Shown here one piece after another: positions 22,836-28,305 of a stretch of 64,000 bases of DNA; position 1 is the first letter of the stretch; every line of letters begins with the position of its first letter. A program made the translations under genes and the position numbers. Below the pieces are notes generated by a model. It searched no databases. It was not told the DNA's origin and saw only the letters and a program-made list of their open reading frames with translations. This stretch comes from an uncultured Methanomassiliicoccales archaeon (lineage in GTDB: Archaea; Thermoplasmatota; Thermoplasmata; Methanomassiliicoccales; UBA472): contig CAVTBB010000005.1 in the NCBI GenBank assembly GCA_963732855.1, positions 279,663 through 343,662 of the forward strand. Reading direction: 5' to 3'.

Positions 22836-23393
22836 TCAGTCTCGTGGTTCCCAGTTGGAATCCTGCCAATCGCTCCCGACCCGTTCCCGGCATTCGGCGA
22901 TGATGGCGTTCACCTGTTTGTCATGCCGGACCTCCTGGGCGATATCGGTGATGAGCTCGTTCGTATAGCGCCGGTGACAAGCAGGGCAGAGGGTCTTGAG
23001 ATTCCCAGGGTGATCCGAACCGCCCCTGGAACGGGGGATGATATGGTGCACCTCGAGCGATTCGAGGCGGGTCCCGCCTCTGCCTCGCCTGAGGGTCGGG
23101 TCATAAACCTTGATGCGGCCCCGCTCAAAATTGACCCCACAATCCTGGCATATGTACTTGTCACGCCGGAGCACCGCCGACTTGATCTTGGGCCATAGGA
23201 CCCTTCGTACCAGGTCGGACGTCTCTTCGGCATATGGCTGCTGCTTTGTGCCAGTGAGGTAATATTTGCGCAACCCGGGGAAATCGGCCCTCATCTGTTT
23301 GAGCGCAGCCTTGGTGGATGCCCATGCCTCACAGATCATCCTGGAGTTCGAGTCCCGACGATGCCTGTGCCCGCAGTGTGGGCAGGGGACCAT
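22836..23393 (-). CDS. HNH endonuclease
   Basis: Likely start ATG 23393 (MVPCPHCGH); RRDKYICQDCG, EVHHIIPRSRGGSDHPGNLKTLCPACH. Confidence 0.9.
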   Translation of the reverse strand: MVPCPHCGHRHRRDSNSRMICEAWASTKAALKQMRADFPGLRKYYLTGTKQQPYAEETSDLVRRVLWPKIKSAVLRRDKYICQDCGVNFERGRIKVYDPTLRRGRGGTRLESLEVHHIIPRSRGGSDHPGNLKTLCPACHRRYTNELITDIAQEVRHDKQVNAIIAECRERVGSDWQDSNWEPRD

Positions 23394-23718
23394 CGTCCTC
23401 TTAGAAGACTTGTCTGAAATGGCCACACGGAATGGGCAGACCGCGGCCAGTTCTGGACCGCACACGATCGGTCTGCTCTCATCCGCCCCATGGAAGACTA
23501 GAGAGGGAATCGCTCCCTCGGTATCAGCCAGGCGTCTGCTCTTCATCAGGCAGTAGCTGTTCTCCGCGGCTGTCAGTCGAAAATTGCAGACCGGTTCTGA
23601 TCGTTCCATCCTTTCCCTAGGATGATGCACTGGCCTAATAGAATTTTTCACCGGAGGGGGATTGTCGTGTTCGATGGGAACGATTATCTACCAACGGGAC
23701 CCCTAGTCAAGTTCAGTT

Positions 23719-25080
23719 ATGGTCGCAGCGAATGATTGGGACTGGCAGTTGTATCCGGAGACCGAGACCCTCCTTTCCGGATTGGTCCGCTCGTTCCTGA
23801 AAGGGAATCGCTATGCCGATGTAGTCCGGGGAGAGATAGAGAATACCAGCTCAACCCGTTTCATCGATTGGGTGGACAGCATGGAGATTCCGAAGGGAAC
23901 CGCGACCGATGAGCACCTAACAAGGCTGGGATACATCAAGGAGCGGACCATTGGCTTGGACGGTGAGGCGTATAGACATCATGGTGGGGCATTCTTCCCG
24001 ATAATGCTGCGAGACGACCAGCGATATAACCTCTCCTTGAAAGTCGATGATTTGGAACGATTCCTCGGTGCGAACCACATGACTCAAAAAAGGATTCTCG
24101 GAGAAAGGAACGCTCCGCTCAGAAAGGTCGAACTGAACCGTGAGGACGTTCACTCTTTATGCGTTGTCGAGAGGCATGGGAGCATATCGTTCGATATAGA
24201 CCAGGCAATTGACCTCAAGGAATATGCTGCCGCCCTGAACATCCTGTCCTCCAGGAAAAGGACCTTCGAGTACGACATCGATGGCATCGAGGATCTGAAA
24301 GACAAGATCGGAGCCCTCAGGGATACCTTGGCCGCAGCGCGCCTGGCGGATGTTTTCTTCCGTGCTGAGAGGGCCTATTGGCTATCGAGGAACCGGGCCG
24401 GCATGGTGCAGTACAAGCGCCAGGAACATCTTGGTCTTGGATGGGGGAACCACGACCATCACACGTTCCGGTGCTCGAGGGAGAACTTCGGCAATGTCGT
24501 AGACATCTTCGAAGAGATGGGGCTGACGAAACGCGAACGTTTCTTCGCTGGGACGCAAGCCGGCTGGGGAGCTCAGGTCATGGAACAGCCAGATTCCGAT
24601 CTGGTGATCTTTGCCGATGTGGACCTGGGACCGGATGAGGGCCATACAAATTTCGTAACCCAAGAGCTCGAACCATTGGAGAAACTGGGCACAGTGGGGC
24701 TGTGGGTCGGACTGCACGGCGAAAGCGTCTTGGACTCGGGAATGCACCATCTGTCTGTCGGGTCCGATTTCAAGGGCATGCGGGAGGACCTGGGTGCCAG
24801 GGAGGTTATCTCTATGAACCCGTTCTCGAATTTCGATTTCCTCAAACAGTCTTTCACTGAGGCGGAGCAATGGATGCCCCGGAAGGAACGGATGGACCGT
24901 CTGGTGGAGGCGAACTATGTCCCTGAGAAACAGGCTGCCCGGTTCGTCGAGTATGGGGCGGTCGGAAGTCACCTTGAGATCGTCCAGAGGGACCGCGGTT
25001 TTAAGGGTTTCAACCAGGATTCGGTGAGCGCGATAATCCGGATGACCGATCCGCGGAAACGGTCAGAGATCGGAGCTTAG
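23719..25080 (+). CDS. VOC-fold protein, distant DUF1338/HglS (2-oxoadipate dioxygenase/decarboxylase)-like
   Basis: NHDHHTFR, VIFADV, GMHHLSV, LKQSFT, HLEIVQR and GFNQDSVSAII are colinear with the DUF1338 motifs as I recall them. Confidence 0.65.
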   Translation: MVAANDWDWQLYPETETLLSGLVRSFLKGNRYADVVRGEIENTSSTRFIDWVDSMEIPKGTATDEHLTRLGYIKERTIGLDGEAYRHHGGAFFPIMLRDDQRYNLSLKVDDLERFLGANHMTQKRILGERNAPLRKVELNREDVHSLCVVERHGSISFDIDQAIDLKEYAAALNILSSRKRTFEYDIDGIEDLKDKIGALRDTLAAARLADVFFRAERAYWLSRNRAGMVQYKRQEHLGLGWGNHDHHTFRCSRENFGNVVDIFEEMGLTKRERFFAGTQAGWGAQVMEQPDSDLVIFADVDLGPDEGHTNFVTQELEPLEKLGTVGLWVGLHGESVLDSGMHHLSVGSDFKGMREDLGAREVISMNPFSNFDFLKQSFTEAEQWMPRKERMDRLVEANYVPEKQAARFVEYGAVGSHLEIVQRDRGFKGFNQDSVSAIIRMTDPRKRSEIGA

Positions 25081-25082
25081 GA

Positions 25083-26576
25083 ATGACAACGAACGATATC
25101 CTATCGATCAAAGGGAAAGTGATAACGGACGAGAGGCAACTGGAGAGATATAGTAGCGACCTCAGCCACTACTACATGAGACCAAAGATCGTGGCTATCC
25201 CATTGGACGAGCACGATGTCGAGGTGGCTGTCGAGTTCGCCGTGAAATCCGGGACCGCGATAACCCCCAGGGGCGCTGGCTCAAACCTATCCGGTTCGGC
25301 GGTAGGCGACGGCATGGTCATCCTGACCCGGGAGCTGGACCGGTTCGTCAAGAAGGACGAGAGCATCTATTCCTGCCAGCCTGGAATGGTGTTCAACAAT
25401 CTGGACAAACAGGCCAGGACAGATGGGTTCTTCATTCCATACGACCCCAGCTCCCGGGCGTTCTGCACCATCGGCGGGAACGTCGGAACAAGGGCGAGCG
25501 GCATCCGTTCGCTCAAGTACGGCAGTGTCGACAACTGCCTGGATTCATTGCGCTTCGTCAACCCCATCTTTGGCCTGGTCGATACCGCCAAGGAACTGCC
25601 CCCGGAGCTACGGCTGGCTTTGGATGATATCACCTCGCGATTCCGTGAGGACGAAGAGATGCTGTTGTTGATGGAGAGCCGCGCAAACCTAAAATCCAGC
25701 AGCGGATACAACCTGGGGGCGATGCTGGAAAAGAAGGATATGAACCGGGTCGCAGCCCACCTCATGGTTGGTTCGGTCGGAACTCTCTCCGTGTTCACCG
25801 AGGTCCGTCTCAGGCTGAGGCCGATCCACAAAGAGAGGGTGCTTTATATGGCATTCTTTGACTCGCTGCCCAAGGCGGTCCGGAAAATGATGCCCGCGAG
25901 AGTGTTCGGGCCATCGGCATTCGAGATGCTGGATACATTCGGGGTCAGGAACATGTCCGCCCTGATGCCTGTTCCGCCTGAAGCAAAGGCAGTGATCATG
26001 CTTGAGTTCGACGAGGCGCTGAGCGAGGCAGAGTCGAAGATGTCGGCACTGCTGAAGGGAACAGACAGTAAGGATCTGGTCTTCCGGGACCAGACTCTCA
26101 TCGACAAGATCTGGGCGGTGAGGGAGAGCAACCTGCTGCGCATCAAGCACGAGCTGGAACGGCCGGAGCTCAAGTTCTTATCCTTCATCGACGACCTGGC
26201 GGTGCCCCCGGACCGGTTGCCAGAGCTGATCGATCGCCTGGATTCAATCTTCCGGGATGAGGGGACTCAGGTGATCATGTACGGTCACATTGGCGAGGGG
26301 AACCTGCATGTCCGTCCCTACATCAAAAAGGAAGGGTGGGAAGATCTCACCAAGAGGTTAGCCGACAAATGCTTCCATGCGGTGCTGGAGAATGATGGCA
26401 CCATCACCGGGGAGCACGGCATGGGCCGGAACCGATCAAAGTACCTTCCAGAAGAATGGGGTAAGCGGGCATTCGCCTATTTCGAGGAGATCAAGCAGCT
26501 ATTCGACCCGGAGGACCTGATGAACCCTGGAGCGGTGTTCACCAAGAACGATCTGACAGAGCATCTCCGGTTCTAG
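25083..26576 (+). CDS. FAD-linked oxidase/dehydrogenase (GlcD / D-2-hydroxyglutarate or D-lactate dehydrogenase family)
   Basis: TPRGAGSNLSG, TIGGNVGTRASG, GHIGEGNLH, TGEHGMG, DPEDLMNPG; no Fe-S domain. Confidence 0.92.
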   Translation: MTTNDILSIKGKVITDERQLERYSSDLSHYYMRPKIVAIPLDEHDVEVAVEFAVKSGTAITPRGAGSNLSGSAVGDGMVILTRELDRFVKKDESIYSCQPGMVFNNLDKQARTDGFFIPYDPSSRAFCTIGGNVGTRASGIRSLKYGSVDNCLDSLRFVNPIFGLVDTAKELPPELRLALDDITSRFREDEEMLLLMESRANLKSSSGYNLGAMLEKKDMNRVAAHLMVGSVGTLSVFTEVRLRLRPIHKERVLYMAFFDSLPKAVRKMMPARVFGPSAFEMLDTFGVRNMSALMPVPPEAKAVIMLEFDEALSEAESKMSALLKGTDSKDLVFRDQTLIDKIWAVRESNLLRIKHELERPELKFLSFIDDLAVPPDRLPELIDRLDSIFRDEGTQVIMYGHIGEGNLHVRPYIKKEGWEDLTKRLADKCFHAVLENDGTITGEHGMGRNRSKYLPEEWGKRAFAYFEEIKQLFDPEDLMNPGAVFTKNDLTEHLRF

Positions 26577-27198: not shown

Positions 27199-28305
27199 CT
27201 AGCTCTTCATGAGATGGCTTGGTGTCTCCGGCTTCGGTGAGAAGCAAAGCTCTGAGAAATCCTCCATTTGGACTTCCATTTCCGAAGCGGTTGAGGTCAC
27301 AATACCCTCGAAGAAGTCCTTTAGGTCCTTGGGTGAGGCAGAGACCCGGGCATTCAAAATCAATCTTCCATCGTTCTTGAGATATCTTCCACCCCTTATC
27401 CCATCGGTCTGAATGGAATCCATCACCAGGCTCATCTTGACCGCCGCTTCCCTTGACTCGACCAGGACCTTAACGTGAGCGATGGCCTCGCTCCCGAATT
27501 TGGAAGAGACCTTTTTCAGGAGCGATTTAATAAAGACATAGAGATCGACCGGGGTAGAGGCATGCAGGTGCGCAGTGGCGTTATACCAGCCCATGGAGGC
27601 TTTCTCCATAGCGAACATGCGATTGTCTGTCGGAGCGGCCGCCTTTTCGCTCAATCTATCCGACAATATGACATCGATGATCTGGTCCACATTCGTCATG
27701 GATTTGGATGAGAACACTATCACTGTGGCCTCTGGGACCTCCAGTTTCACATGTCTGGTGGCTTCCTCGATCTGTTCTTCGGTCAATCTGTCGGCCTTGG
27801 AGATCAGGACATATTCCGCCTCATGAAGTTGATGTGCAGGGATTATCTTGCTTGACCCCAACCCGAAGCCTTGAGATTTTTCCAATAGTTCCGATATTCT
27901 GGTCCCGTCGAGGACCACCAGAAGAGGTGCCACTTCGAATTCTTCGGGATACATAGTCCTCATCGGCACCACGACTGAAGCGAGGATGTTCGTCGAGGTC
28001 CCGATAGGTTCCGCAATAATGATGTCCGGCCTCCCTACTTGCACCAAGCTTCGGGCATTCTTGACAAAATCATTGAAATTGGAGCAAAAACAACCTCCCA
28101 TGACATCCATGACGTCGAACCCCGCGTTCCTGACGAATTCGGTGTCCACCAATACGTTGCCCTGGTCATTTGTTATTATGGCAACTGATAGGTCGTGTTT
28201 TTCCTTCAATTCCCGGCCAATTGCGGTGGCCAGAGTTGTTTTTCCAGCCCCGAGATACCCACCAATGATTACAAATCTGGTCCTTAGGGCGGCTCTTGAC
28301 GTCAT
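27199..28305 (-). CDS. CobW/COG0523 (G3E) GTPase fused to a C-terminal partner domain
   Basis: GGYLGAGKTT, NDQG, GGCFCS, AEPIG, SKAD; C-terminal AHVK domain. Confidence 0.88.
   Translation of the reverse strand: MTSRAALRTRFVIIGGYLGAGKTTLATAIGRELKEKHDLSVAIITNDQGNVLVDTEFVRNAGFDVMDVMGGCFCSNFNDFVKNARSLVQVGRPDIIIAEPIGTSTNILASVVVPMRTMYPEEFEVAPLLVVLDGTRISELLEKSQGFGLGSSKIIPAHQLHEAEYVLISKADRLTEEQIEEATRHVKLEVPEATVIVFSSKSMTNVDQIIDVILSDRLSEKAAAPTDNRMFAMEKASMGWYNATAHLHASTPVDLYVFIKSLLKKVSSKFGSEAIAHVKVLVESREAAVKMSLVMDSIQTDGIRGGRYLKNDGRLILNARVSASPKDLKDFFEGIVTSTASEMEVQMEDFSELCFSPKPETPSHLMKS

Follow-up and report, generated by a model that had tools for sequence, protein, structure and literature searches.

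A predicted 2-oxoacid dioxygenase-decarboxylase family without annotation, encoded with a D-2-hydroxyacid dehydrogenase in a Methanomassiliicoccales archaeon

The window analysed here, a stretch of 64,000 nucleotides from an uncultured Methanomassiliicoccales archaeon (assembly GCA_963732855.1, contig CAVTBB010000005.1, positions 279,663 to 343,662), carries on its forward strand two consecutive genes, ORF A (23719..25080, ATG start, 453 aa) and ORF B (25083..26576, ATG start, 497 aa), all coordinates being those of the window. A belongs to a family of vicinal oxygen chelate (VOC) fold without annotation and is predicted to be an Fe(II) 2-oxoacid dioxygenase-decarboxylase performing the job of HglS, and B is an FAD-linked D-2-hydroxyacid dehydrogenase of the GlcD / D-LDH / D2HGDH family. 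HglS/YdcJ (DUF1338, PF07063), found in P. putida, E. coli and, as FLO7, in plants, is a 2-oxoadipate dioxygenase-decarboxylase, and A most likely represents an unrecognised sequence family that carries out the same chemistry. The reading that we favour, with somewhat better than even confidence, is that A acts as an Fe(II)/O2-dependent 2-oxoadipate dioxygenase-decarboxylase whose product is then taken up by B. This reading is built on fold, conservation, motif correspondence and gene neighbourhoods, from which we infer metal and substrate, O2 dependence, and the identity and stereochemistry of the product.

In the proposed reaction, a 2-oxo-dicarboxylate, most likely 2-oxoadipate, would chelate the iron with the oxygens of its C1 carboxylate and C2 keto group, and its distal carboxylate would be held by R251, which follows H247 at a distance of four residues on one strand, like R74 in HglS, and by the C-terminal GFxxxSV loop. 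O2 would drive an oxidative decarboxylation and then a hydroxylation, yielding D-2-hydroxyglutarate and CO2, and B would oxidise D-2-hydroxyglutarate to 2-oxoglutarate. In Verrucomicrobia and Phycisphaerae, the A family would close the route that leads from lysine through piperideine-6-carboxylate and 2-aminoadipate to 2-oxoadipate. If A does perform the job of HglS, it would explain how 2-aminoadipate or 2-oxoadipate is converted into 2-oxoglutarate in many PVC bacteria and archaea without DUF1338, and it would constitute a third sequence family, beside HPPD/HMS and HglS, of Fe(II) oxygenases that use the 2-oxoacid itself as substrate. In the literature searched, no paper describing a second HglS-type family was found.

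An unannotated family and its gene neighbourhoods

The first-pass annotation had regarded A as a hidden enzyme, and this term is fair. Neither Pfam nor NCBIfam gave a match at E ≤ 0.1, and phmmer and profile searches against the PDB returned only noise (best E 0.09, a dynein-associated protein). A word-indexed search retrieved 6,406 homologues among 8,000 candidates scored, none of them with a Pfam domain and every named one called "hypothetical protein", and in an exhaustive HMMER scan, 1,027 of the clusters at 50% identity matched at E ≤ 1e-3, 274 of them at E ≤ 1e-30. The family comprises about 1,000 clusters when grouped at 50% identity and more than 6,400 at 90%, and at least 577 species encode it in contigs sampled at one genome per species. 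The archaeal carriers include Methanomassiliicoccales, Micrarchaeota (including the 0.81-Mb ARM-1 genome), Bathyarchaeia, Thorarchaeota and Nano- and Aenigmarchaeota, and the bacterial ones include Patescibacteria, anammox Brocadiia, Phycisphaerae/Tepidisphaerales, Planctomycetia, Verrucomicrobiota, Aminicenantes and Acidobacteriota. Thus, a family with neither a Pfam or NCBIfam model nor a name extends from a 0.8-Mb DPANN genome to Verrucomicrobia, and a model built for it would put right thousands of entries now annotated as "hypothetical protein".

The strongest and most informative evidence on A comes from its gene context. Three genes on each side of A were called and clustered at 78 non-redundant loci, and a D-2-hydroxyacid dehydrogenase adjoins A in 26 of them. 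Sixteen of these dehydrogenases are of the FAD-linked GlcD type and homologous to B, and are found in Methanomassiliicoccales/Thermoplasmatota, Bathyarchaeota, Nano- and Aenigmarchaeota, Micrarchaeota and one planctomycete. The remaining ten belong to the unrelated NAD-dependent D-isomer-specific 2-hydroxyacid dehydrogenases (2-Hacid_dh_C 1.5e-58; PGDH-like) and lie directly downstream of A in Micrarchaeota and Marsarchaeota, both types being found within Micrarchaeota. The alternation of two non-homologous D-2-hydroxyacid dehydrogenases at one position points to a D-2-hydroxyacid as the product or substrate of A. The pairing of A with a dehydrogenase, first remarked at this single locus, is therefore conserved across phyla.

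In the window, B is translationally coupled to A. The junction (25078..25085, forward strand) reads GCT TAG GA ATG ACA, that is, the stop of A, a 2-nt spacer and the start of B, so that the 453-aa hypothetical protein and the FAD-oxidase gene 2 nt after its stop are both where the first-pass annotation had placed them. The order A then B on one strand also occurs in six loci from Methanomassiliicoccales, Thermoplasmatota and Bathyarchaeota (L004, L005, L016, L051, L054 and L071). It seems very improbable that the pairing is incidental, with B as a lone glycolate or D-lactate dehydrogenase and A as a binding or regulatory VOC-fold protein that has no catalytic link to B. Such an arrangement would account for the absence of a dehydrogenase beside A in 52 of the 78 loci, for glycolate oxidase being the best PDB match of B and for NCBIfam scores of B that fall below every cut-off; however, Methanomassiliicoccales and Bathyarchaeota alike retain the 2-nt coupling, the same place beside A is taken in 26 loci by D-2-hydroxyacid dehydrogenases of two unrelated families, and about 70 invariant residues, including the full candidate metal triad, point to catalysis by A.

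The second informative context is that of lysine catabolism, whose genes neighbour A in loci from Verrucomicrobiota and Phycisphaerae/Tepidisphaerales. Eight of the ten neighbouring aldehyde dehydrogenases are equivalogs of L-piperidine-6-carboxylate dehydrogenase (e.g., 807 bits against a cut-off of 730), and in L062 and L074 the genes for L-lysine 6-transaminase (587 bits, cut-off 521), L-piperidine-6-carboxylate dehydrogenase and A follow one another on one strand. A saccharopine-dehydrogenase-like gene adjoins A in five loci, in place of the lysine 6-transaminase, and aminotransferases do so in 13, those of the anammox loci being of class I/II or class III and co-directional with A. Of the 78 loci, 47 have one or more such partners. 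In Pseudomonas, HglS functions in a lysine catabolic route in which 2-aminoadipate is converted into 2-oxoadipate, D-2-hydroxyglutarate and finally 2-oxoglutarate (PMC7286885). By analogy, the neighbourhood of the A family appears to be the position that HglS holds in that route: both adjoin piperideine-6-carboxylate dehydrogenase in lysine catabolism, and both would pass their product to a D-2-hydroxyacid dehydrogenase.

The distribution of both families among bacterial genomes can be set beside these loci. Among 151 Planctomycetota genomes, PF07063 is present in 12, the A family in 14 (11 of them with strong matches) and piperideine-6-carboxylate dehydrogenase in 70. PF07063 is missing from all 11 genomes with strong matches to A, and canonical full-length HglS is found in other genomes that carry piperideine-6-carboxylate dehydrogenase, a pattern consistent with replacement of one enzyme by the other but not significant. 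In Verrucomicrobiota, the A family occurs in only 5 of 201 genomes and is too rare for an exclusion test.

Other loci have contexts of their own. In Scalindua (L003/L067:1352-5317), a fused ETF alpha/beta gene and an ETF:quinone oxidoreductase are located upstream of A, and a class III aminotransferase downstream overlaps the stop of A; bacterial D-2-hydroxyglutarate dehydrogenases usually pass their electrons to ETF. Two Micrarchaeota loci (L017:2609-8300 and L022) contain five co-directional genes that encode an isocitrate/homoisocitrate-dehydrogenase-like protein, MmgE/PrpD, a ComA (phosphosulfolactate synthase)-like protein, A and an NAD-dependent D-2-hydroxyacid dehydrogenase, and this cluster may represent a different pathway feeding A. 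In Thorarchaeota (L028 and L029), the genes that flank A encode histidine ammonia-lyase (PF00221, 5e-208) and urocanase, a context of histidine conversion to glutamate and not of lysine.

Predicted fold and candidate active site

The AlphaFold2 model of full-length A, computed on a 30-sequence alignment, has a pLDDT of 89.9 and a pTM of 0.91. When this model was compared with the PDB by Foldseek, the top 50 matches were all HMS or HPPD (E 1.8e-8 to 7e-6, probability 1.0), with alignments to these two-domain enzymes that span 450-517 columns and cover both domains. Global TM-scores are low (0.2-0.4), as would be expected for two domains seated differently. The model of residues 235-453 alone, computed on 54 sequences (pLDDT 86.1, pTM 0.83), matches the catalytic domain of HPPD/HMS (TMq 0.45-0.57, rmsd 4-6 Å, probability 1.0) and methylmalonyl-CoA epimerase (TMt ~0.6), and this part of A is therefore assigned to the paired beta-alpha-beta-beta-beta VOC domains. 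Thus, the VOC fold anticipated for the catalytic part of A is borne out by the Foldseek matches of both predicted models.

The N-terminal half of A (residues 1-234; 23719..24420, forward strand, as are all the features of A described below) is formed by two helices, a beta-rich module (strands 52-152) and a helical linker (166-236). It is devoid of candidate metal ligands, and hhalign lays its residues 53-152, with low confidence, on the N-domain of HPPD. The C-terminal catalytic domain (residues 235-453; 24421..25077) contains, in the domain model, two beta-alpha-beta-beta-beta VOC modules. As in HPPD and HMS, which provide the best Foldseek matches for both the whole predicted protein and its catalytic domain, a ligand-free N-terminal barrel would be followed by a C-terminal barrel with His, His and Glu at matching strands, although A has a 70-residue helical linker that distinguishes it from HPPD.

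The metal ligands of VOC enzymes sit on the strand that opens each module and on the strand that ends the second one. In the AlphaFold2 models, the opening strands of modules 1 and 2 bear H247 and H344, respectively, the final strand of module 2 bears E420, and these three residues are proposed to hold Fe(II). The codons of H247-H248-T249-F250-R251 (24457..24471; strand 245-251) would provide the first metal-ligand His and the Arg at His+4, those of H343-H344 (24745..24750; start of strand 344-348, the first of module 2) the second His, and those of H418-L-E420-I-V-Q-R424 (24970..24990) the Glu ligand within an ExxxR motif, in which H418, E420 and R424 share the same face of strand 414-424. 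The codons of G427-P445 (24997..25053) encode the C-terminal motif GFKGFNQxSVSxIIxxTDP, probably a loop that closes over the substrate together with a helix. The motifs quoted in the first-pass annotation are all at the residues it had given, H247, R251, H344 and E420 included, with DHHTFR starting at residue 246, VIFADV at 296, GMHHLSV at 341, LKQSFT at 375, HLEIVQR at 418 and GFNQDSVSAII at 430.

Conservation was assessed in a 30-sequence full-length alignment (55% mean column identity) and in a 54-sequence alignment of the C-terminal domain. Some 70 columns are invariant among the 30 sequences, including D246, H247, R251, R254, H343, H344, H418, E420, R424, K429, N432 and S435, and the 54-sequence alignment agrees on all of these but S435, which is Ser in 39 of the 54. 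In the C-terminal motif, G427, F428, K429, G430, F431, N432, T443 and P445 are invariant in the 54 sequences, with Ser at position 435 in 72% and Ser or Thr at position 437 in 96%. Consequently, the His-His-Glu residues and the Arg at His+4 that had been picked out beforehand are invariant and located, in the models, on the strands expected for VOC ligands, as a predicted site.

Motifs similar to G-x-[QH]-H-[IL] and E-I-[IV]-Q-R ... G-F-x-G-x-N are common to A and HPPD/HMS. An NCBIfam scan of A found neither TIGR01263 nor any other family at E ≤ 0.1, and hhalign of A against five TIGR01263-positive HPPDs gave a weak alignment (E 0.045-0.08) that lays GMHHL on G-x-QH-I-A and HLEIVQR...GFKGFN on FFEIIQR...FGKGNF, thus pairing H344 with the second His and E420 with the Glu of HPPD. 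Nevertheless, the pocket of A is lined with Arg, Asp, Glu and His, unlike the aromatic and hydrophobic residues of HPPD/HMS that suit aryl-pyruvates, and its gene context is that of aliphatic dicarboxylates and lysine, and not of tyrosine as for HPPD.

With respect to HglS, the metal ligands of this enzyme are H70, H226 and E294, its R74 forms a salt bridge to the distal carboxylate of 2-oxoadipate, and a mobile loop makes contact with the substrate through Val402 and Ser403, of which Ser403 binds the distal carboxylate (PMC7286885). The comparison set of DUF1338 proteins consisted of PF07063 matches from Planctomycetota genomes and E. coli, in which the conserved motifs are (D/R)H-x-A-x-R, NH-x-T, E-x-x-x-R and F-x-x-x-S-A-x-x-I-F-x-S-(T/N). 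The catalytic domain of A aligns weakly in hhalign with seven short-form DUF1338 proteins (E 4.9e-4, probability 32%), over 196 columns that cover the whole domain, with DHHTFR on DHIAFR, E420xxxR424 on ExxxR and GFKGFNQxSVSxIIxxTD on GFIAxSADKIFESTD. R251, invariant in both the 30 and the 54 sequences, would be the counterpart of HglS R74, DHHTFR falling on DH(I/G)A(F/I)R, the motif around E420 aligns with E(F/I)xxR, and the C-terminal motif of A aligns with GF(I/L)xxSAxxIFxS(T/N) of DUF1338, the loop that holds Val402 and Ser403 in HglS. A therefore shares with HglS a VOC fold with a candidate His-His-Glu triad, an Arg four residues after the first His, an ExxxR motif beginning at the Glu and a C-terminal F-x-x-x-S-[AV]-x-x-I-[FI] loop, and its catalytic domain (219 aa) resembles the short DUF1338 proteins (~266 aa) in size and motif order. 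However, the first and second His are 97 residues apart in A and 156 in HglS, and A has a 234-residue N-terminal addition, unlike long-form HglS, which has an internal helical insertion.

These comparisons refine the description of A as a divergent HglS with an extra N-terminal domain. The latter part stands, since residues 235-453 align with the 266-aa short DUF1338, leaving an N-terminal addition of 234 residues. The former holds for the Arg at His+4, the ExxxR motif and the Ser loop, which are in register with short DUF1338, but A is not a detectable DUF1338 member, and its closest solved folds are not that of HglS but those of HMS and HPPD, which are also the closest characterised folds to HglS itself (PMC7286885). 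Formal membership of A in PF07063 was considered and set aside, as the Pfam model is silent and the profile-profile alignment reaches only the values given above. In our reading, to which the earlier description comes close, A is a separate sequence family whose catalytic domain is a remote DUF1338-like relative and whose overall architecture is HPPD-like.

The predicted site would also be compatible with a non-oxidative VOC enzyme that works without O2 at a four-ligand site (H247, D300 or D302, H344 and E420), like glyoxalase I or methylmalonyl-CoA epimerase, and that isomerises or epimerises a 2-oxo or 2-hydroxy compound, for example by converting a 2-oxoaldehyde into a D-2-hydroxyacid or an L- into a D-2-hydroxyacid, the D-specific dehydrogenase then oxidising the product. 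The invariant D300 and D302 share one face of strand 295-302 in the model, the strand on which glyoxalase I-type enzymes have their fourth ligand. Moreover, methylmalonyl-CoA epimerase is among the Foldseek matches of the domain, a D-lactate-type dehydrogenase usually follows glyoxalase chemistry, and the family is found in strict anaerobes, the host methanogen included. Nevertheless, the best structure and motif matches of A are O2-dependent HMS/HPPD and DUF1338 enzymes, D302 aligns in hhalign with a conserved Asp of HPPD that is not a ligand, the lysine operons offer no place for an isomerase, and many carriers are aerobes (Verrucomicrobia, Tepidisphaerales and Tautonia), all of which makes this alternative decidedly improbable.

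The FAD-linked partner, the substrate and the use of O2

B contains, as do D2HGDH, D-LDH and GlcD, both FAD_binding_4 (2.6e-26) and FAD-oxidase_C (6.3e-47) in Pfam. In NCBIfam it scores 204 bits with glcD and 155 bits with YdiJ, all equivalog scores being far below the cut-offs, and its PDB matches are glycolate oxidase (9qgz, 3e-45, the best), LctD, mouse D-LDH and human D2HGDH (6lpn, 3e-27). In human D2HGDH, R386, H434, H441, E475 and H476 bind Zn and the 2-hydroxyacid head group, and Lys401 and Asn443, strictly conserved in the orthologues, bind the C5 carboxylate (PMC7801405). In a phmmer alignment to 6lpn, read with the residue roles from the same source (PMC7801405), B keeps counterparts of R386, H434, H441, E475 and H476 as well as of Tyr432. 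The Tyr/Arg pattern, with Arg at the position of Asn443, is common to the partners from Methanomassiliicoccales, Bathyarchaeota and Aenigmarchaeota, and the Micrarchaeota partners keep Asn443 and not Lys401. An assignment of B as an established D2HGDH orthologue was rejected, Lys401 and Asn443 not being conserved. Thus, of the D-2-hydroxyglutarate dehydrogenase that had been proposed as the partner, the D-2-hydroxyacid dehydrogenase domains and the head-group residues are present, but the specific assignment is weakened by the absence of Lys401/Asn443 and by the best PDB match being glycolate oxidase. Judged from its residues, B appears to be a D-2-hydroxyacid dehydrogenase with a polar, cationic distal pocket that would be compatible with a dicarboxylate. 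In the 64-kb window, no fused or adjacent Fe-S partner (GlcF or YdiJ-C type) or ETF partner of B was found.

The host is a methanogen, as its genome encodes McrA and the closest A loci come from Methanomassiliicoccales, which agrees with the methanogen lineage suggested for it from the start. A profile search of the whole host genome, in which the E. coli control was detected, found no PF07063 gene.

Several observations weigh against A being a 2-oxoadipate dioxygenase-decarboxylase. In sequence, neither the Pfam HGLS model (PF07063) nor NCBIfam detects A at E ≤ 0.1, hhalign of A against E. coli YdcJ, alone or with long-form DUF1338, gives no signal, and in the short-DUF1338 alignment, with its probability of only 32%, the second His is about five residues out of register. 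In structure, no DUF1338 or HglS structure is in the top 50 of either Foldseek list. The additional invariant polar residues D246, D300, D302, H343 and H418 of A have no role in the HglS model, and the strand that bears D300 and D302 is the one that supplies the fourth ligand in non-oxidative VOC enzymes. In the partner, the residues at the positions of Lys401 and Asn443 are Ile (FIDDL) and Arg (LHVR). In the genomes, the absence of PF07063 from all 11 strong-A Planctomycetota genomes is not significant, with about 0.9 overlaps expected by chance, and tblastn found no orthologues of lysine 6-transaminase, piperideine-6-carboxylate dehydrogenase or saccharopine dehydrogenase in the host genome, so that the lysine reading is not directly transferable to this archaeon and its source of 2-oxoadipate is only assumed. 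Finally, the host is an mcrA-positive methanogen and many other carriers are anaerobes (anammox bacteria, Bathyarchaeia and Thorarchaeota), which fit poorly with an O2-dependent enzyme.

Alternatively, A could perform the same Fe(II)/O2-dependent decarboxylation and hydroxylation within one substrate molecule, but on a different 2-oxoacid, B oxidising the corresponding D-2-hydroxyacid, one carbon shorter. The substrate might be 2-oxoglutarate, 2-oxopimelate or 2-oxosuberate (from coenzyme B synthesis), or a sulfonated or branched 2-oxoacid, and the specificity might vary between clades. In this direction point the archaeal and anammox loci without lysine genes, which have only a D-2-hydroxyacid dehydrogenase or generic aminotransferases, the Tyr and Arg of B instead of the Lys/Asn pair of D2HGDH, the position of A after isocitrate/homoisocitrate dehydrogenase-like, PrpD and ComA genes in Micrarchaeota L017 and L022, and the histidine ammonia-lyase and urocanase that flank it in Thorarchaeota. 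We regard a different substrate as rather unlikely, since HglS owes its strict specificity for 2-oxoadipate to residues that the Arg at His+4 and the Ser loop of A match, the active-site residues do not vary between clades, an argument for one substrate, and the route from lysine to 2-aminoadipate is the only clearly identified pathway context.

The methanogen and anammox carriers nonetheless leave the 2-oxoadipate reading with a puzzle, namely the role of an apparently O2-dependent enzyme in organisms that avoid O2; many carriers of A are anaerobes or DPANN archaea, a difference from HglS. HglS, HPPD and HMS all need O2, and in the host 2-oxoadipate would need another source than lysine, for example the 2-oxoacid elongation that serves coenzyme B. 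The roles suggested for an anaerobe in the first-pass annotation, O2 scavenging or the handling of coenzyme B intermediates, are speculative. In strict anaerobes such as the host, anammox bacteria, Bathyarchaeia and Thorarchaeota, the family may have a role other than that of a lysine-catabolic oxygenase. A could there perform an O2-independent VOC reaction at a four-ligand or even two-metal site involving the additional invariant D300, D302, H343 and H418, or act as an O2-triggered drain of the 2-oxoadipate of coenzyme B synthesis towards 2-oxoglutarate; we consider this reading as a whole unlikely. Either of these alternatives, if true, would connect 2-oxoacid chain elongation with central metabolism in archaea in a new way.

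Gene start, flanking genes and divergent copies

The public gene call for A gives a protein of 443 aa that begins 10 codons downstream of the ATG at 23719. A conserved FDWxLYPE motif at residues 7-14 of A, with W9 in at least 90%, sits upstream of that public start, so that the ATG at 23719 is the better start.

The family is patchy in the order of the host, being present in 11 of 121 genomes and 3 of 31 genera, and in all seven sampled genomes of the host genus. Directly upstream of A, on the reverse strand (window 22836-23651), a 271-aa ORF encodes an HNH endonuclease with zinc-ribbon motifs (PF01844, 5.9e-13), which may be a mobile or selfish element beside the patchily distributed A-B pair. 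Downstream of the pair, also on the reverse strand (window 27199-28305), lies a gene for a CobW/COG0523-type GTPase (PF02492, 1.4e-24) with a long C-terminal extension, and a GTPase of this type is kept three genes downstream of A in L004 and L005. In two Methanomassiliicoccaceae loci, a gene on the same strand (L051:8878-9720 and its counterpart in L054) comes after the A-B pair and encodes a Pirin, a metal protein of the bicupin type (PF02678 1.5e-36, PF05726 2.6e-24); Pirin is often tied to O2 or redox chemistry, and here too the carrier is an anaerobe.

Large Planctomycetota genomes encode a divergent sub-family of A of about 400-420 aa (G013:C1:8634793-8635908, G154:C1:4250988-4252076 and G099:C68:59132-60217), which matches only profile positions 8-382 (255-278 bits). 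As the match ends at position 382, the E420 strand and the C-terminal loop would be missing or altered in these proteins, which in G013 and G154 occur alongside canonical full-length HglS. In the Verrucomicrobiae genome of locus L081, a second copy of A (G004:C3:489673-491027) is broken into several frames, with an in-frame TGA, and looks like a decaying paralogue.

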